NCBI GenBank assembly: GCA_026984935.1
Contig: JALSRD010000028.1
Span: forward strand, 7,097 to 71,096
Reading direction: 5' to 3'
Source of the DNA: Desulfobacterales bacterium
Lineage (GTDB): Bacteria > Desulfobacterota > Desulfobacteria > Desulfobacterales > JALSRD01
DNA: 64,000 nucleotides
Shown here: piece after piece, positions 54,465-61,483 of the stretch
How positions within the stretch are numbered: position 1 is the stretch's first letter
Layout of the letters: each line of letters starts with the position of its first letter
The notes under the pieces: model-generated
What the model was told of the DNA's origin: nothing
Databases searched by the model: none
The model's input: the letters and a program-made list of their open reading frames with translations, nothing else
Program-made: the position numbers and the translations under genes

Positions 54465-57400
54465 TTACCTCTTCTGCAGTCTGCTTCTTAGCTCACGGAC
54501 ACCGGCGGCCTGCCGCGCCAGGCCCTGTAACTGGTCCACATACCCGGCGATCCGGCGGTCGTAGAGCTCCGTCGATCCGCCGCGCGCCGCAACGGCGGCC
54601 TTTTGGCGCCGCGCGGTCTTGATGCGGCCCATGATCTGCCGTGCCGCGTCGCTTTGCGTTGGATTCAATTTTGCCAGCCGCCGATCCAGTTGCTCGATAT
54701 AGTCCACCGGGTACATTTTCAGCCCCGCCAGCACGTCCGCCAGCACGATCCCGAGGCCGCGCTCGCGGCCGCGGTAGTCGGGCTTGCCGCGCAGGGCGTC
54801 ATACACCTTGCCGATATCCATCACCGGCGTGGGCAACATGGTTTGCGCCAAATGCGCGCCGCGTTTCTTAAACTCTGTCCAGGCGCGCTGGGCACCGCTC
54901 TGCCCAGCGACATCTTCCGGCTTTAGGATCGGTTGTTTCCAGAACCAGTCGTAATTGGTCCCCTGCTGGATGGCCTCTTTCAAAAAGGGATGCGAAAAGG
55001 GCTGCAGCCCGCCCGGGATCCCGCCCCAGCCGCCGGACTCGCCCAGGTCGCCCCAGGGCGTCATGTAGGACAGGTTCAGCCAGTGGTCGCGGCCGAAATT
55101 GTCCGTCACCGGCACGCGCGCGAAGTTCGGCAGCCACGGCAGCCCCAAAAAATGACCGCCCATCCAGTCCGGGCGCGCCTTTTTTTTGAGCTGCGCCGTC
55201 TCGCGCGTATCACCGGCATCCCGCCGCGCGGCCTCTTCCAGGCCCCAGATAATGGCCGCCGGCAGGATAAACCGCTGGGGCGTTTTAACGGCCGCCTCCA
55301 GCACGCGCGGGATCGCCTTGAAGGTAAAGGTGGCAAACGGTGCCCCCAGCAAACTGTTGCGGTAGCGCTCCTGAAAGCGCGTCACGCGGCCGTAGTCAAA
55401 CAGCCACTTGCTGGCATCGGCGGCGGCCTGCTCGGGCGTCATGCCGCGTTTTTGCATGTCGTGCATGAACTTGCTTAATTTGAACCATTCCTCCTCCGCC
55501 TGGTAGGCGTCCCCCAGCTTTTTGCCCATGCGCCGGATGGCGGTCACGGCCTTGCCGATGCCCGTCAGGGTGTCCTCCAGGGACCCGGCCTTGACGCCGG
55601 CCATCTGCCGCTCCACGCGGTCGTACAGGTCGCGCAGCTCGCCGGACACAAAGGTTGACGACAGCAACCCCTCGCGCTTGGCCAGGCGCCAATACTTGCC
55701 GCGGCTGCGCATTTCGCGCGCCGCGCGCGCCAAATACAGCGGCTGCGACCACAGCGGCTGGCCGCCCAGGTGCGCCAACAGGGCGTTGGCGTACATATTG
55801 CGCACGTGGGTTTTCAGGCTCCAGATCACCTTGCCGGACTTCCACTTGGTGGTCAGCTTACGGATGATCCGGTCGGCGGCCGCGGGCGCTTTCAGTGTCC
55901 AGTTGACGTCGCGCGCGATCTCCGGGTGCACCCAGGCGCCGGCAAGCGCGCCCAGTTTTTGGTTTTGCGGCAGCTTTACAAACCCTGCCGGGATCTCGCC
56001 GGCCTTTTCGATCACCGTTTGGGTGCGCCAGCCTTTACCGGTTTTTATTTTGCGCGCATAAATATTCAGGTCCGGGTGCGCGGCCGCCACCTGCTCCAGC
56101 ACATCGGACAGCGGCGCTTGTTTGTTCTTCGCGCGCGCGTCCGCGATCTCGCCCTTGACGGCCGCGATGACGTCCGCCGGCGGCCTGGGCGTATAGGCCC
56201 AGTCCGGGTTCTCGGCGATGCGCGCCAGCCAGCGCGCCGTCTGGATGCTGTGGGACAGCTGCACAATGCCCTTGGCCACCGGGTAGCCCGGCGTCAGGAT
56301 CTCGCCCATCTGTTGGCGGATCTCCGCCGGGATGTCCTTGCGCCGCCGGAAGCGCTCAAGGTCCAGGCGCTCGGGCGCCCTTTCGCCGTAGCGCGACAAT
56401 AAGCCTTGGTACTCCTTGCTGGTGTACAGCCGCGGCATGTAGCGCCCGGCGTTTTTAAAAAAGGTCTTTTCATCCAGCAGCCCGGCGTCCACGGCCTGCT
56501 TGCCCAGCTCCAAAAGCGCCCAGGAGGCCTCCGAGGCCAGTTTTTCTTCCGCCGGCGACAACGATACGTCCTGCCCGGTGATCGCCTGGCCGATGCGCAG
56601 CTGGCTGTCCTCGGGCACGGATTGCAGGCGGTTTCCCAAATCGATGCCGTACTCGGCGCCGATCTGCCGGCCGCGGCGCATTTTGTCCAGGCTGCGCACA
56701 TACCCGGGGCTGTCTTTTAAGTCGCCGCGGTAGTTATAATCCAGCGCCCGGCGCATGGCGGAAACCCCGCGCCCGGCCACCGGGATTTTCTCCAGGGCGT
56801 CCGGGATCTTGCCCATGATCCACTTGTCCCAGACCGGCGCGCCGATATACTTTTCCCAAAACCGGGCCCCTTCGGACAACGCCTGCAGCGGCAGGCCGCC
56901 GTACAAGCGTGTTCCCGAGTTCAAATCCCTTACGGCTCCGGATGTATGGTCTCTGGCCGGCACGCGCCGGGTGGACGAATGAGACGCCTGGCTGGCGTCC
57001 ATACCGGTGTCGGAAAGGACGATATCGGGGATCGTGATCTGGGTGGCATCGCGCACTTTCCAGATGGCGTTGCGTAAATTATCGCGCTCCGGTTTCATGA
57101 TGCTGGATTTAAAAAACGGCAGCACCATGCTGGCGTTGTGGCGCTCCACCGCGCCGATCAAGTCGGCGGCGAAATCGCGCATCGGTTGGCCCGGACGGTA
57201 GCGCCAAACGCCCATCGGGTGCAGCTTGGCATCCAACAAAATGGCGCCCTCTTGATCCATGAGGTTATTTTTTTTGAGATAATCGCGCACTTCGACATGA
57301 TCGTTGAGTTTTTCGGTGGCCGGTAATTTTTTCAGTGTGCGCTCGCGCACCGGTATGGTGGCGGTTCTCAGGATGGGCCGCAAGTCAGCAGCGGTGTCCG

Positions 57401-60400
57401 CGGGATGGGCGGCCCTGGGATCAAACCGTGCATACTGACGGCGGCCGATCACCAGGTTTTGCAGTTTGATGTTTTTTAGGCGCAGGAAGTCCCCCAGCTG
57501 GCCGGCGGCCTGCATGTCGTGCGGGCTGGGAAGCGGGTCTCCTGACGGATGGTTGTGGACAAAATAGACGTTGGCGGCTTCCGGCGTGTTGAAAGCCCGG
57601 CCGGCCATTTGGGGGATATCCAGCTGGCTGGCGGCTTTAAGGCCCTTGGTGTGGCGTTCTACTTCAAGGATGCGGCCGTGCTTGTCGGTGATGACCAGGT
57701 AGGCTTCTTCTTGCGCCTTTTTACGCAGGGGGGCTAGGAGGCTGGCGGCTTCGTCCGCGCTGCGAACGAAATAATCTTTACCTTTGATGTTTCCCGTGGT
57801 TTCGAGCCGTATGGCGCTGTCTCGTCCGGGTTGTCCGAAGGATATACCCATTCGGGCTGCAGCTTGTCGGTCGGCAGATACTCGACTTTTCCGCGGCGGA
57901 CCAAAAGCCAGTTGCGCCTGTTGGGGGTGTGGGATGTCATAAGGGGATGTCCGGCTTATTCTTCCGGCGGCGGCCAGATTTGTTTCTGTCCCTCGACCAG
58001 GGCGTCGAAAAACTTGTTGGCTCTCTCGTAATCCTCGGGCCTGTGCTTGCCGATGGGCTTGTACGATTTTCTCAGCTCGGGCAGCGATTTCTCCAGATAT
58101 TCGTCTAAGCCCCTCCGGATGTATGCTCTGTACCCTTTCATATTTGCCACCTCCAGTTTTATGATAATCAATTCCCATCAACTTGTCAAACAGGGCCTGG
58201 TCATGGATCCTTGGGGGTTCGTTTATCCTTTTGGTCATTACAACCCGCGGTTTTTTAAAATCGACGTTGTTGTCCACCAGGGAAAAAGCGACGCGCCGGT
58301 TGTCCTTGTACTCCTTGAAAAGCTGTATAAAGGTCGGCAGCGAGTAGTTGTGTCCCTTGATGCTTACATCTAAGGGGATGATGCGGTCGCTTTCATTTTT
58401 CATCACCCGCGCGATGGAGCGGGCGGTTGATGTCGGGGCGTCGATGTTTGTAAAACTGATGGATACTTCGCCGTTGTCTTTGGCCAGGCGTTTTTCGATC
58501 AATCTCTTGGCGGTGGGGTAACTGGACAAAAGGCTGTCGTAAACCACGTCGTAGCCGCGCTTGATGGCCTGGTCGACCAGCTCTTTGTTGATGTCACTGC
58601 TGGCCTCGTGCGCCTGGGCCGCCCTGTCGGCGTAGCCCAGTTGCTCCTTGATGGCGTCGGCATCGCCATGCACCATCTGCTTAAGGGCCGCCTTGTCGAT
58701 TCCCAGGCGCGCCAGGCCGGTGCTCTTGCCGGCGCCGGGCGGTCCGCCGGTCAGCACCAGTTTGGGGTGTTTTTGTTCTAATACCGGACGCGGTTTGCCG
58801 GCCAGGTTCCGCCGGATGACATCGGCGGCGGTGGCGTCGTCGATGACGATCTGCGGCACGTGCTGCGCCGGGATTGTGGCCTGTGCGAAAATGCCGTTAA
58901 AGTCCCTGGGAACTCCCGCGCGATATCCCGACGGCGTTTCCGCGACGCGCCCGGGCTGGCTCACCTGGTCGAAAAAGTCTGTCAGCGCGTCCAGGTTCCG
59001 TTGCTCTTCTTCGGTCAGTCCCTGTTCTTGGCGCTCTTTTGCCAGGCGCTCTTTTTCCAGCTGGGCGATCTCATCGTCGCTGTACTGCTGCTTGTCCGGC
59101 TGCTCCAGTTCGTCCCGCAGCCGTTTTTCTTCTTTTGACAACTGGTTGCGCGGCAGGTCGAAAATCTCCCCCGCCGTGACCGGGTGCCGCCGGTTCAGCG
59201 TGCCCTGCGGATCCGTGCGCAGTAATTCAGGCAGGCTTTCGTCCGGGCCGATCCAGCCTTCGTCGCGCAGGATCTGCTGCACGTCCTCCCAGGGCAGGCC
59301 GGTTCTGTTGTTGGATACGTAGGACACGGATCGCGGCATGTCGACCACCTCGCCGCGTGCGTTCTTCCATGATATTTTGCCCAGCTCCTCGAGGCGGCCG
59401 CGCAGCCGGGTGGCCGCCGGGCGTTCGCGGCCGAGGCCCAGGCTGCGGGGGATATTGCCGGCAACGGCAATCTCCGGTGCCGCCGCGATTTCCCGCGCGC
59501 GGACTTTTTCTTTCAGGCGGCCTTTCAACTGCCGGATCCCCTCGCTTTGCCGCAGATCCGTGCGCGGCGCCCCCACCAGCTCAAACCCCTGCCCGGGCGG
59601 CAGGGCGGCCCTGGCCTGCTCGGCAAGCCCTTTGATGCGCTGGGACAAAAGGGTGTTTACCGGCGCCGCCGTGCCCTGCCGGATGGCTTCCAGCCGGTCT
59701 TTCTCAAGGTCCCGTAGATGTAGGCCCGGCGCTGGCGGCCCTTCAGGCCCCGGCGGTCCGCTTCCCGCTTGAGCTTCTGTTCCAGTTTTTTCGGCATGCA
59801 TACCTCCTGTTTCCTGGCCGGTCAGGATGCGGCCGGCGGCTTCGGGTGTCAGGCCGTATTCATCGGCGAACTGTCGGCGCAGCTCATCGCTTTTGCGCGC
59901 CAGGGCGGCGATCTGTTCCGGTGGTGCGCCCTTTTCCACGTTGCCGTGGAATATTTTACCCATGGCCAGCATGCCGGCCAGGTCGCCGGCGATTTGCGAC
60001 CCGCCGCGCGCCTGGGCTTTCAGCCAGCCCGCCCAGTCGGTGTCTGCTGGTTTGTCTTTCAGCACGGACAACTCTGATACCGCCCGGCCGGCGCGGTGCA
60101 AGGCCTCGATGGGTGCAAAAGCGGTGCGCCCCACCAGCTCGCTTTCGGGGGTTGGCGGCTTGTAATACGGCAGTTGTTTTTCGGTGCGCGCCATGCCGCG
60201 GTTAAAGGCCTGGTAGATTTTCTCCAGATCACCGGTCATGATAGCGGCCTGCAGCGCGTCTGCGGCACCGCCCAGGGCGTACAAGGGGAACATCAGGGCC
60301 TGGTCGGCGGCCGACAATGCACCGGATATGATCCGCATGGGGTGTGTTGCCAGGCTGGCATATCCCCGCGTGGTGGGGTTGTCGATATAGGGCTTAACCA

Positions 60401-60602
60401 CCCGGCCCAGCCGCGAAAGCAGGCCCGGTTTGGCGGGCGGCTTGGGCTGCATGGCCGGATCGTAGCGGTCCAGAAAGCTGGCGCTTGGGTTGCCGGCCGG
60501 CATTTGGCCCTTTACCGCCGGATCGTAGCGGTCCAGAAAAGCTGCGGCAGGTGCCTCTTGGGACTTTTGGAAAGCCGGATCGTATGTGTCCAGAAAACTC
60601 AC
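54465..60602 (-). CDS. giant polyvalent phage protein: Zeta-toxin-like P-loop kinase domain + RadC-like JAB/MPN domain + ~980-aa unassigned C-terminal region
   Basis: An uninterrupted 2,045-codon frame starts at a GTG (GGAGG upstream, GTGA overlap with the upstream gene). The Zeta-like region is nt ~58233-58835 (LVLTGGPPGAGKST). The JAB region is nt ~57417-57785 (VYFVHNHPSGDPLPSPHD). The coding signal is out of frame between ~57790 and ~58140 (see findings). Confidence 0.65.
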   Translation of the reverse strand: MSFLDTYDPAFQKSQEAPAAAFLDRYDPAVKGQMPAGNPSASFLDRYDPAMQPKPPAKPGLLSRLGRVVKPYIDNPTTRGYASLATHPMRIISGALSAADQALMFPLYALGGAADALQAAIMTGDLEKIYQAFNRGMARTEKQLPYYKPPTPESELVGRTAFAPIEALHRAGRAVSELSVLKDKPADTDWAGWLKAQARGGSQIAGDLAGMLAMGKIFHGNVEKGAPPEQIAALARKSDELRRQFADEYGLTPEAAGRILTGQETGGMHAEKTGTEAQAGSGPPGPEGPPAPGLHLRDLEKDRLEAIRQGTAAPVNTLLSQRIKGLAEQARAALPPGQGFELVGAPRTDLRQSEGIRQLKGRLKEKVRAREIAAAPEIAVAGNIPRSLGLGRERPAATRLRGRLEELGKISWKNARGEVVDMPRSVSYVSNNRTGLPWEDVQQILRDEGWIGPDESLPELLRTDPQGTLNRRHPVTAGEIFDLPRNQLSKEEKRLRDELEQPDKQQYSDDEIAQLEKERLAKERQEQGLTEEEQRNLDALTDFFDQVSQPGRVAETPSGYRAGVPRDFNGIFAQATIPAQHVPQIVIDDATAADVIRRNLAGKPRPVLEQKHPKLVLTGGPPGAGKSTGLARLGIDKAALKQMVHGDADAIKEQLGYADRAAQAHEASSDINKELVDQAIKRGYDVVYDSLLSSYPTAKRLIEKRLAKDNGEVSISFTNIDAPTSTARSIARVMKNESDRIIPLDVSIKGHNYSLPTFIQLFKEYKDNRRVAFSLVDNNVDFKKPRVVMTKRINEPPRIHDQALFDKLMGIDYHKTGGGKYERVQSIHPEGLRRISGEIAARAEKIVQAHRQAQARGLRESQQVFRRPGRGTETNLAAAGRISRTSPYDIPHPQQAQLAFGPPRKSRVSADRQAAARMGISFGQPGRDSAIRLETTGNIKGKDYFVRSADEAASLLAPLRKKAQEEAYLVITDKHGRILEVERHTKGLKAASQLDIPQMAGRAFNTPEAANVYFVHNHPSGDPLPSPHDMQAAGQLGDFLRLKNIKLQNLVIGRRQYARFDPRAAHPADTAADLRPILRTATIPVRERTLKKLPATEKLNDHVEVRDYLKKNNLMDQEGAILLDAKLHPMGVWRYRPGQPMRDFAADLIGAVERHNASMVLPFFKSSIMKPERDNLRNAIWKVRDATQITIPDIVLSDTGMDASQASHSSTRRVPARDHTSGAVRDLNSGTRLYGGLPLQALSEGARFWEKYIGAPVWDKWIMGKIPDALEKIPVAGRGVSAMRRALDYNYRGDLKDSPGYVRSLDKMRRGRQIGAEYGIDLGNRLQSVPEDSQLRIGQAITGQDVSLSPAEEKLASEASWALLELGKQAVDAGLLDEKTFFKNAGRYMPRLYTSKEYQGLLSRYGERAPERLDLERFRRRKDIPAEIRQQMGEILTPGYPVAKGIVQLSHSIQTARWLARIAENPDWAYTPRPPADVIAAVKGEIADARAKNKQAPLSDVLEQVAAAHPDLNIYARKIKTGKGWRTQTVIEKAGEIPAGFVKLPQNQKLGALAGAWVHPEIARDVNWTLKAPAAADRIIRKLTTKWKSGKVIWSLKTHVRNMYANALLAHLGGQPLWSQPLYLARAAREMRSRGKYWRLAKREGLLSSTFVSGELRDLYDRVERQMAGVKAGSLEDTLTGIGKAVTAIRRMGKKLGDAYQAEEEWFKLSKFMHDMQKRGMTPEQAAADASKWLFDYGRVTRFQERYRNSLLGAPFATFTFKAIPRVLEAAVKTPQRFILPAAIIWGLEEAARRDAGDTRETAQLKKKARPDWMGGHFLGLPWLPNFARVPVTDNFGRDHWLNLSYMTPWGDLGESGGWGGIPGGLQPFSHPFLKEAIQQGTNYDWFWKQPILKPEDVAGQSGAQRAWTEFKKRGAHLAQTMLPTPVMDIGKVYDALRGKPDYRGRERGLGIVLADVLAGLKMYPVDYIEQLDRRLAKLNPTQSDAARQIMGRIKTARRQKAAVAARGGSTELYDRRIAGYVDQLQGLARQAAGVRELRSRLQKR
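57734..57940 (-). CDS. second alternate-frame ORF (68 aa) inside the giant ORF
   Basis: It is in the same frame as 57956-58141 and starts 13 nt after that ORF's stop. The first ~30 codons (MTSHTPNRRNWLLVRRGKVEYLPTDKLQPE) show strong G/C-ending bias, but there is no clear SD. Confidence 0.3.
   Translation of the reverse strand: MTSHTPNRRNWLLVRRGKVEYLPTDKLQPEWVYPSDNPDETAPYGSKPRETSKVKIISFAARTKPPAS
57956..58141 (-). CDS. nested/alternate-frame small ORF (61 aa) inside the giant ORF
   Basis: GGAGGTGG lies 5 nt upstream of the ATG at 58139-58141. The product is MKGYRAYIRRGLDEYLEKSLPELRKSYKPIGKHRPEDYERANKFFDALVEGQKQIWPPPEE. Third-position G/C is much higher in this frame than in the giant frame. 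Confidence 0.45.
   Translation of the reverse strand: MKGYRAYIRRGLDEYLEKSLPELRKSYKPIGKHRPEDYERANKFFDALVEGQKQIWPPPEE
60453..60596 (-). repeat. three coding repeats of the FLD(T/R)YDPA motif at the N-terminus of the giant protein
   Basis: The protein reads SFLDTYDPAF...AFLDRYDPAV...SFLDRYDPAM. At the DNA level ccggatcgta(g/t)(c/g)(g/t)gtccagaaa recurs three times. Confidence 0.85.
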
Positions 60603-61483
60603 CGCACCTCCGGGAAAAGATCGTGCAGCGCCTGCTCGGCCTCGTCGCGCGTCAGGGCGCCGGCGGCCAGCAGCTGCCCGATTGTCTCCGGGGACAGCCC
60701 CAACTCGGCCGGCGAATGACCGCCGGCTTTGTACTGCCGGGCCAGGGCCAGCGCCGCTGTCAGGTTCTGCCGGGCAATCGCTTGGGATTTAGGGCTGCTT
60801 GTCAAAATGTTCTGTTTGGCGGCAATGGCGCTGTAACGTCCGAAATAGGATGCAAAGCGGTTGCGCAGGTCTTTCAGGTCACCGGCGGCCTGCTTCTGCG
60901 CCGCCGTCAGGCTGCCCTGTTTCGGCGGCGCGGACGGTGCAGTGAAAATCGCTTTATTGGTTCTTGGATCATAAACCGTAGTGCTTGGCGCCAGTGGTAA
61001 TTTTCGCTCGGGCGCCGGCGGCGCGGTGTAGACCCCCGTCTGGGTTCTTGGGTCATAAACCGTAGCGTTTGGCGGCAACACTTTTTGCTGCGCCGGCGCC
61101 GGCGGCGCGGTGTAGATTACTCTCCCGCTGGCCTGGTCCACAATGCGCTGGCCCGGGGATACGTTGCTGGTCTGCGGCCGCAGGGCCGTTGTCAACCGCG
61201 ACAGGGCGTTGGTGTAGGCCGCCTGGGCGTCGGCGCGGTTGTTGGCGAAATCTTCGAATCCCTTGACCAGGGCGGTGAAGCGCGCCAGCGCGGGCATGTC
61301 CAGGTTGTGGTCGGCGGCAAAACGCTGCAGGCCTTCCGGGGACGGGTCGTAGTTTTCAAAAAAACGCTTGCCCAGCGCGCGGTCGCGCTCGGCCTGCAGG
61401 TAGTTTTTAATCTGGGTTGCGCCGCGCTGCGCGCCGATGGTGTTCAGGCGCTCCATTTCCGCCAGTGCGTTCAAAACTCCCAT
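60599..61483 (-). CDS. hypothetical phage protein with internal YTAPPAP / TVYDPRT repeats
   Basis: 294 aa with good codon bias. Its stop overlaps the giant ORF start. Confidence 0.65.
   Translation of the reverse strand: MGVLNALAEMERLNTIGAQRGATQIKNYLQAERDRALGKRFFENYDPSPEGLQRFAADHNLDMPALARFTALVKGFEDFANNRADAQAAYTNALSRLTTALRPQTSNVSPGQRIVDQASGRVIYTAPPAPAQQKVLPPNATVYDPRTQTGVYTAPPAPERKLPLAPSTTVYDPRTNKAIFTAPSAPPKQGSLTAAQKQAAGDLKDLRNRFASYFGRYSAIAAKQNILTSSPKSQAIARQNLTAALALARQYKAGGHSPAELGLSPETIGQLLAAGALTRDEAEQALHDLFPEVR

Follow-up and report, generated by a model that had tools for sequence, protein, structure and literature searches.

We analysed a 64,000-nucleotide (nt) window of a Desulfobacterales genome assembly (GCA_026984935.1, contig JALSRD010000028.1), in which the giant open reading frame (ORF) of a prophage polyvalent protein carries, between a Zeta-toxin-like domain and a JAB domain, a stretch of about 400 nt whose codon signal departs from the giant frame. 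This stretch is probably dual-coding, being translated as an interdomain linker and at the same time holding one or more genuine small genes overprinted in the +1 frame. In the mechanism that we propose, the final codons of the Zeta region would double as a sigma-70 promoter, a strong ribosome-binding site and a +1-frame ATG; the internal promoter and its Shine-Dalgarno (SD) sequence would express a small nested protein, ORF1 (61 amino acids, aa), and a second one, ORF2 (68 aa), would probably be made by re-initiation 15 nt past the ORF1 stop. Selection would act on the giant frame where the giant protein is structured (a helix named here after its residues "YER" and the N-terminal extension of JAB) and on the +1 frame where the giant protein is a free linker. 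In the free linker, selection on the +1 frame would move the codon-position signal and fill the giant third positions with A, because these are the second positions of hydrophilic +1 codons.

The giant ORF, called Q below, lies at 54465–60602 on the minus strand, as do the ORFs, domains and signals of the window described here, and its 6,138 nt encode 2045 aa in a single open frame. It contains a Zeta-toxin-like P-loop kinase domain (58341–58784, aa 607–754; Pfam PF06414, E = 1.7e-17) and a RadC-like JAB domain (57429–57761, aa 948–1058; Pfam PF04002, E = 8e-15). Alignment with eight homologues (39–51% identity) extended the conserved Zeta region past the Pfam limits to about aa 850, and a conserved N-terminal extension of JAB (QAQLAF ... 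RLETTGNIKG) begins near 57930. The presence of Zeta_toxin and RadC in Q agrees with the definition of polyvalent proteins, in which several unrelated effector domains share one phage or prophage polypeptide; this family has been described with Zeta-like kinases among its cargo domains, and internal promoters or overlapping genes get no mention in that description (PMC5512222). Full-length homologues of 1941–2277 aa were found on phage-like metagenomic contigs with tail-collar, beta-helix and lysozyme genes as neighbours, which are phage structural contexts.

Judging from these homologues, the giant frame is translated through the anomalous stretch as the linker between Zeta and JAB in a virion-associated polyvalent protein, and its description as non-coding in a first-pass annotation of the window was wrong at the protein level, parts of the peptide being conserved. 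When eight homologues were searched against 57400–58500 by tblastn, every significant match was in the giant frame, and the matches spanned the anomalous stretch. Behind Zeta the homologues keep the motif ..Y(H)..GG.KYER...(L)......I..RA.., and before JAB they keep QL.F..P and R.xTTGxI.G..VR.A...ASLL.PLRKKAQEE (the closest relative, P0007, and the distant phages L019 and L020 at 39% GC); giant-frame motifs on the JAB side are conserved in P0007, L016, L019 and L020. The frame is unbroken in Q and in all full-length homologues recovered, the closest relative included, and it stays open across the site to the end of the locus in the partial loci L026, L028 and L029. Among 12 classified natural variants between the window and sequencing run X2, 9 fall at giant-frame third codon positions. 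Since giant-frame matches and motifs on both sides are shared by homologues, we conclude that the giant frame is translated and that the architecture is old.

Codon usage in the linker was anomalous, in keeping with the initial description of a departure of about 400 nt with about 4 in 10 giant-frame codons ending in G or C and about ten CGA arginine codons. A maximum-scoring-segment analysis placed a stretch with its codon signal in +1 at 57765–58175 (codons 810–946), over which the G+C content at giant-frame third codon positions (GC3) was 0.39, that is, about 0.40. In 50-codon windows, GC3 was 0.32–0.48 from codon ~781 to 901 (~58260–57900) against a gene mean of 0.76, and these were the only windows in the gene below the mean minus two standard deviations. 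The third positions of the stretch were enriched in A (0.40 vs 0.15) and depleted in G, and CGA accounted for 10 of the 18 Arg codons in aa 821–935, compared with 2 of 167 in the rest of the gene and 5.6% genome-wide. With 1996 long ORFs from this genome as the training set, a codon-usage likelihood model preferred the +1 frame from ~58172 to 57900, and within Q this frame beat the giant frame only at aa 811–~900. The log-likelihood difference between +1 and the giant frame was +26.7 over 61 codons and +29.4 over 115 codons, values reached by 0.045% and 0.031%, respectively, of interior gene windows genome-wide. The three-frame statistics thus do not favour the giant frame throughout, +1 being ahead over the anomaly. 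The 7–8 in 10 +1 codons reported at first to end in G or C were borne out as a value (0.70), which is near the ordinary first-position GC of 0.65; because first-position GC (GC1) is always high, the high +1 "GC3" is partly trivial, and the informative signal is the drop of giant-frame GC3 together with the likelihood test.

At the start of this stretch, the codons of the conserved F-D-K ... Y-H Zeta motif contain a predicted sigma-70-type promoter, TTGACA-17-TATCAT (58161–58189), which matches 11 of 12 consensus bases and whose spacing falls in the 16–18 nt expected between near-consensus −35 and −10 boxes. No other match of at least 10/12 occurs on the gene strand over 6.1 kb; the genome (7.8 Mb of strand sequence) has 72 matches of that grade, only five of them followed by an SD and an ATG, and 0.057 are expected per gene strand. 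The SD GGAGGTGG (58147–58154) is present about 7 nt past the −10 box and, as first described, 5 nt upstream of the ATG of ORF1 (57956–58141), which runs over the conserved "YER" helix and then over the variable linker. The SD overlaps the Gly-Gly codons of the giant frame, and the ATG, formed by TAT-G, overlaps Tyr-Glu. ORF1 is therefore complete with a start and a ribosome-binding site in an alternative frame, as expected of an overprinted gene, and its frame is the best of six by codon likelihood. An AlphaFold2 model from the single sequence is a helical hairpin with a predicted local distance difference test (pLDDT) score of 82.8, for which Foldseek searches of the PDB returned just generic, non-specific helical hairpins (E ≥ 4). 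ORF2 (57734–57940) ends inside the N-terminal extension of JAB. The coordinates, lengths and +1 frame of both ORFs agreed with the first-pass annotation, apart from the spacing of the two: from the ORF1 stop to the ATG of ORF2 it had been counted as 13 nt and is 15 nt. A search of 57300–58500 with Rfam gave no match, and the sequencing runs listed for the stretch included no RNA run. We infer that ORF1 and ORF2 are expressed and functional in this prophage.

We found the same promoter, SD and ATG cassette at the homologous site in ten homologues of 47–69% GC. In the codon alignment it reads TTGACA, 17 nt, TATCAT, 6–25 nt, (A)GGAGG(T), 4–10 nt and an ATG in +1, encoded by the conserved residues F-D-K ... 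Y-H ... G-G-(G)-K-Y-E. The promoter match was 11/12 each in P0004, P0008 and P0006 and 10/12 in P0003; L026 and L029 carry TTGACA-17-TATCAT, and variants occur in P0009 (TTGACG-17-TATCGT), L028 (TTGACT-17-TATAAT), L027 (TTGAAA-17-TATACT) and, in weaker form, P0010. In Q, P0004 and P0008 the cassette promoter is the sole match of at least 10/12 in the whole gene.

The promoter bases were conserved beyond the need of the protein across the ten homologues. The −10 box is always TATnnT, and the residue after the first Tyr is H, I, N, T, R or G, in six different codons (CAT, ATT, AAT, ACT, CGT and GGT) that all end in T, the base that does not vary at the end of a −10 box. TAT is used for both Tyr residues in every lineage, including those in which it accounts for 11–18% of Tyr codons, and the TAT-G that gives the +1 ATG is kept in 10 of 10 homologues. 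The SD is retained across differing peptides (GGGK, EGGK, KEV, EG and KGA), and another residue around the site is D or E. All 7 of 7 homologues have an SD of at least 5 nt at a distance of 4–10 nt before the homologous +1 ATG, as compared with about 5% of the other +1 ATGs in these genes. Using each gene's own codon usage, the summed log10 P of the critical synonymous choices was −22.3. A recently exchanged DNA block or a recombination junction was ruled out, as only the consensus-critical positions are kept and the spacers differ freely. Taken together, the alignments show that the predicted promoter, SD and ATG are under nucleotide-level selection across the family.

The codon anomaly accompanies the cassette. 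Seven Zeta-bearing genes available as DNA were compared (the metagenome protein P0005 was left out, as it exists as protein sequence only), and the gene-wide GC3 minimum lies at the end of Zeta in five of them (Q, P0004, P0008, P0009 and P0003), the other two having secondary dips there. P0007 differs in its central module and lacks Zeta; its GC3 minimum is found shortly before JAB. Codon models fitted to each gene put +1 ahead of the gene frame in 7 of 8 genes, essentially nowhere but at the site of the anomaly, and in 7 of 8 genes the +1 codon-usage signal runs 45–110 codons past the start.

Evidence for selection on the peptide itself came from L026 and L029, relatives that are 88% identical (positions are counted from the +1 ATG). 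In the body of their Zeta domain we counted 93 substitutions in 619 nt (15%), 68 of them at giant third positions, with 67 synonymous and 26 non-synonymous. The cassette (−71 to +10) contained two substitutions in 82 nt (p = 5e-4 vs the Zeta body). Over the YER helix (+1 codons 4–41), the changes were 5 synonymous and 3 non-synonymous in the giant frame and 1 and 7 in +1, while in the free linker (+1 codons 42–81) all seven substitutions were synonymous in +1 and six of the seven were non-synonymous in the giant frame, a pattern with p = 1.7e-6 against the flanks. Directly past the +1 stop the giant third-position pattern returned. None of the other five frames fitted, the best antisense frame giving 5 synonymous and 2 non-synonymous changes and containing stops. 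These counts show, for this pair, purifying selection on a +1 ORF homologous to ORF1. Two frames sharing the DNA in alternating stretches would also explain why the +1 peptides cannot be aligned across the family.

For ORF2, the comparison with P0007 pointed in the same direction. At the ORF2 site P0007 has a +1 ORF (L013:5549-5785) that is 61% identical and has the same stop, with its own TTGACG-17-TATGAT promoter and GGAGGA SD. Smith-Waterman scores between the linkers of Q and P0007 were 143 in +1, 127 in the giant frame and 62 in +2. In the first half of ORF2, the ratio of non-synonymous to synonymous differences (pN/pS) was 0.56 in +1 and 1.45 in the giant frame, on small numbers, and the relation was reversed in the second half, where the JAB extension begins.

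A third nested ORF of Q served as a positive control. It encodes 46 aa in +1 (59657–59808, ATG at 59797) and has an SD, AGGAGGT, 4 nt upstream; at 59797–59657 there is a weaker dip (codons 264–296, giant-frame GC3 0.36) and the +1 frame is favoured. This stretch is an insertion relative to P0007. The 46-aa ORF has 94 stand-alone homologues of 40–70 aa (E down to 1e-12, 60–79% identity), which are separate small genes in phage structural operons, beside Dit or tape-measure genes, with the sequence type MPKKLE..LK..A..GL.G....AYIYGTLRKTGWKP and no Pfam or PHROG family. These 94 homologues demonstrate that the giant ORF runs across at least one genuine small gene encoded in a different frame. On the evidence above, we consider ORF1 most likely a genuine nested gene and ORF2 a possible second one; ORF2 is graded as possible rather than established because of the small numbers, the natural variants of run X3 and the poor fold, which are given below.

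Further observations concern the cassettes of other genes. In P0003 a second cassette (L024:3600-3951, aa ~1041–1151), made up of TTGACG-17-TATGAT, GGGAGGT, a +1 ATG and a 93-codon ORF, coincides with a GC3 dip immediately before the JAB domain. Another promoter match of 11/12 was noted in P0006, at aa 459; behind it GC3 dips and a +1 ORF (codons 493–548) is present. Nested cassettes may thus be common at module borders. Pfam gave no match for the other modules of Q, P0007, P0006 and P0003, among them those upstream of the other cassettes. In L027, from a delta-proteobacterial metagenome-assembled genome, the giant gene shifts frame just upstream of the F-E...Y-T promoter motif (1650–1800), by a frameshift or an assembly error, and the cassette TTGAAA-17-TATACT, GGAGG and ATG is still whole. 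By eye only, a C-terminal motif K-x-I/N-W/L-P-P/N-P/A could be traced in several +1 peptides (KQIWPPP, KDNWPPA, KEILPNP and RRLLPSP; window 57959–57985, L026:2090-2143 and L022:2860-2904). We found no closer relatives in 61 related genomes, 400 genomes of the phylum and a phage collection; further homologues came from pattern searches in viral contigs and in the genome collection, at 44–51% identity only.

Several results weigh against functional nested proteins or against a strictly Zeta-linked role for them. Across the family the +1 peptides cannot be aligned (mean shuffle z 0.67 vs 3.9 for the giant frame), and those of several homologues look disordered. A word-based search found no homologues of ORF1, BLASTP between ORF1 and the L026 +1 ORF gave no match, and Pfam and PHROG searches with ten +1 peptides returned nothing significant. 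A profile search of 1.84 billion proteins with the ORF2 peptides found only spurious eukaryotic repeat proteins; in this genome ORF2 has no SD or promoter of its own, its fold confidence is low (pLDDT 49.5), and the X3 variants at 57804 and 57870 are silent in the giant frame and non-synonymous in ORF2. The near-identical sample X2 has no substitution in 57734–58200, so that this genome yields no selection signal. The +1 ORFs do not exceed the length that the giant protein sequence leads one to expect (synonymous re-encoding, combined p 0.26–0.73), and stop-codon avoidance in the +1 frame, assessed in the same way, was not significant. Nested cassettes also precede JAB in genes without Zeta (P0007), and no conserved motif has been demonstrated among the +1 peptides. 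A "frame fossil", in which the +1 peptide would be found in-frame in other homologues, was sought and rejected, as the tblastn matches are in the giant frame only and no database protein contains the peptide.

The likeliest of the rival explanations is a functional cassette whose +1 peptides, in this prophage, are not functional proteins, the cassette acting as an internal booster promoter, a leader-peptide-like ORF or at the RNA level and the content of the ORF being incidental. The unalignable and often disordered-looking peptides without a known family, the unexceptional ORF length and a family-wide conservation that concerns the cassette and not the peptide would all fit it. Nevertheless, we consider it unlikely: the seven synonymous +1 changes between L026 and L029, at sites where the giant protein changes, argue for selection on the peptide, and the +1 codon signal extends past the start in all but one of the eight genes. 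A booster promoter in particular would yield, past the +1 stop, a transcript without a giant-frame start codon, that is, untranslated RNA.

The nested genes could instead be an artefact of composition, in which +1 coding is mimicked by a linker whose many Arg, Ala, Gly, Gln and Pro residues make first and second codon positions GC-rich, its third positions being relaxed or biased to A, and in which the apparent promoter, SD and ATG result from the conserved residues F-D...Y-H and G-G-K-Y-E. The SD does lie on Gly-Gly codons and the ATG on Tyr-Glu, GC1 is always high, and ORFs of such length are expected by chance. However, other disordered or GC1/GC2-rich linkers of Q (rich in G+C at the first and second codon positions) keep a normal GC3 of 0.70–0.85, which also rules out local GC homeostasis or a generic effect of disordered linkers, and the dip goes toward A/T even in homologues of 39–47% GC, which likewise makes rare-codon pausing at the domain boundary unlikely. 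In addition, the codons fit the promoter, SD and ATG consensus whatever the residue and against each gene's bias, and composition cannot give a pattern of 7/0 vs 1/6 substitutions. We therefore judge this explanation improbable.

Separate Zeta, small and JAB genes that merely look fused, or a very recent fusion as suggested by the first-pass annotation, are less probable still. In their favour, the giant frame is nearly neutral in the free linker of L026 and L029, and the nested 46-aa gene stands alone in other phages. Against them, the frame is continuous in full-length homologues and open in the partial loci, with L027 as the one exception, and alignment to relatives, proposed at first to see whether stops or separate genes occur there, recovered one continuous frame; the continuous frame and the giant motifs on both sides of the region are shared by homologues at only 33–55% identity, and motifs inside it are conserved as well. 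No lineage with an intact frame has a stop in the unconstrained stretch, and the length difference from the closest relative, 36 nt, is a multiple of three.

Assembly or sequencing indels, as also proposed at first, or a programmed ribosomal frameshift into and out of +1 are hardly credible, even if shifted codon statistics are what an indel pair would produce: Logan contigs of two studies were mapped to the gene, and the independent X2 contig, from another study (a single contig of 9.5 kb, depth 30), aligns gap-free with 55336–60700, differing by 13 substitutions, the giant frame continues through the stretch in homologues, a +1 stop separates ORF1 from ORF2, no +1 peptide occurs in-frame among the 1.84 billion proteins and no conserved slippery site was seen on inspection.

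Three side observations were made on the giant gene. The sequence Gly-Gly(-Gly)-Lys-Tyr-Glu-Arg at the border of Zeta and linker (58142–58156, aa 817–823) is conserved at the protein level too, and a diglycine at a module border beside a JAB-type domain could be a candidate processing site; RadC-type JAB domains are seen as nucleic-acid enzymes, not peptidases (PMC5512222). A terminator-like hairpin with a T-run (57120–57132) lies inside the gene, about 1 kb 3' of the internal promoter, and could bound an internal transcript or be due to chance. Compared with the window, X2 has clustered substitutions at 54782–54956 and 55238–55365, small insertions near 54789–54799 and short alternative contigs where the giant gene approaches its 3' end, indicating strain-level variation or assembly-graph branching in the C-terminal region.

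Overprinting, nested phage genes and toxin-immunity pairs are kinds of arrangement already known. In Bacillus subtilis, comS is nested out of frame inside srfAB, and the present case resembles it as a small shifted-frame gene with its own ribosome-binding site in a very long multi-module gene, both frames being kept and the nested gene being missed by annotation pipelines. Unlike comS, ORF1 lies directly behind a toxin-type domain whose conserved codons contain the predicted promoter, SD and start of the ORF, and one homologous site is shared by at least ten phage lineages, the peptide having diverged beyond recognition. In the spanin genes of phage lambda, Rz1 is embedded in the +1 frame of Rz and both products are made. 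There too a phage gene lies wholly inside the +1 register of another, but Rz and Rz1 are two subunits of one machine on one late transcript, while here the host is a polyvalent gene of 2045 aa and the nested ORF has its own predicted sigma-70-type promoter. The best-supported novelty of this locus, on sequence evidence, would be a conserved, self-promoted small gene overprinted on the linker behind the toxin domain of phage polyvalent proteins.

As to function, the role that we rank first, though only tentatively, is that of an immunity or antidote protein, produced constitutively from the +1 ORF behind Zeta and directed at the neighbouring Zeta-type domain. We rank it first because the position of the ORF behind a toxin domain and the promoter inside that domain match the designs of MuF toxins and of mqsRA. 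MuF toxin domains of phages have short, domain-less, hypervariable immunity ORFs directly downstream (PMC5576092), a layout echoed here by a toxin domain in a structural-module protein of a phage and, immediately after it, a very short ORF in which no known domain was recognised. By the positional rule for polymorphic-toxin immunity genes (PMC5576092), ORF1 is well placed, starting at the C-terminal edge of the conserved Zeta region. The MuF toxin is C-terminal and its immunity ORF a separate downstream gene, whereas the polypeptide of Q runs on past its internal toxin domain, and it is this further part that the ORF overprints. In the reverse-order toxin-antitoxin operon mqsRA, the antitoxin gene mqsA is expressed from constitutive sigma-70 promoters that lie within mqsR (PMC6918082); the likeness is a sigma-70-type promoter within a toxin coding sequence that serves the small gene after it, uncoupled from the toxin, and the difference is that mqsA does not overlap and encodes a conserved DNA-binding antitoxin, in contrast to an out-of-frame ORF without a recognisable fold family.

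With Epsilon/Zeta and PezA/PezT the locus shares a Zeta-family domain (PF06414), for which a small helical neighbour is the expected kind of inhibitor. However, epsilon and PezA are separate genes that precede the toxin, and ORF1 is downstream, in another frame and with its own predicted promoter. The idea of nested genes overprinted on the linker, raised by the first-pass annotation, is thus the best supported by the cassette, the +1 signal and the L026/L029 pair, but its suggestion of an epsilon-like antidote found no counterpart, as ORF1 had no sequence or fold similarity to epsilon or PezA in Pfam, PHROG, a homologue search or Foldseek against the PDB. Complex predictions of the Zeta domain (alignment A3) with ORF1 gave scores of 0.31, 0.50 and 0.06, without controls, and carry no weight here in either direction.

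Polyvalent proteins are usually seen as single long polypeptides with passive linkers, and the linker described here carries conserved signals and a probable shifted-frame gene that was reported by no gene caller. If dual coding is correct, the locus would clearly illustrate "time-shared" coding, with only one frame constrained in any given stretch, and searches for its signature (the local collapse of GC3, the +1 likelihood and the promoter and SD at synonymous sites) could bring to light overlooked small genes in other giant genes of phages and plasmids. If ORF1 does encode an immunity factor, this would explain how phages carry Zeta-type toxin domains in late genes and in lysogens: a toxin-immunity module would be built within one giant ORF by dual coding, with the immunity promoter in the toxin's own codons, and delivery of the toxin domain by the virion would leave lysogens and producing cells unharmed. 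The locus would also offer a toxin/antidote pair open to direct testing. In a wider sense, small genes overprinted on polyvalent-protein linkers and expressed separately would form a hidden reservoir, with three of them in this prophage gene alone.

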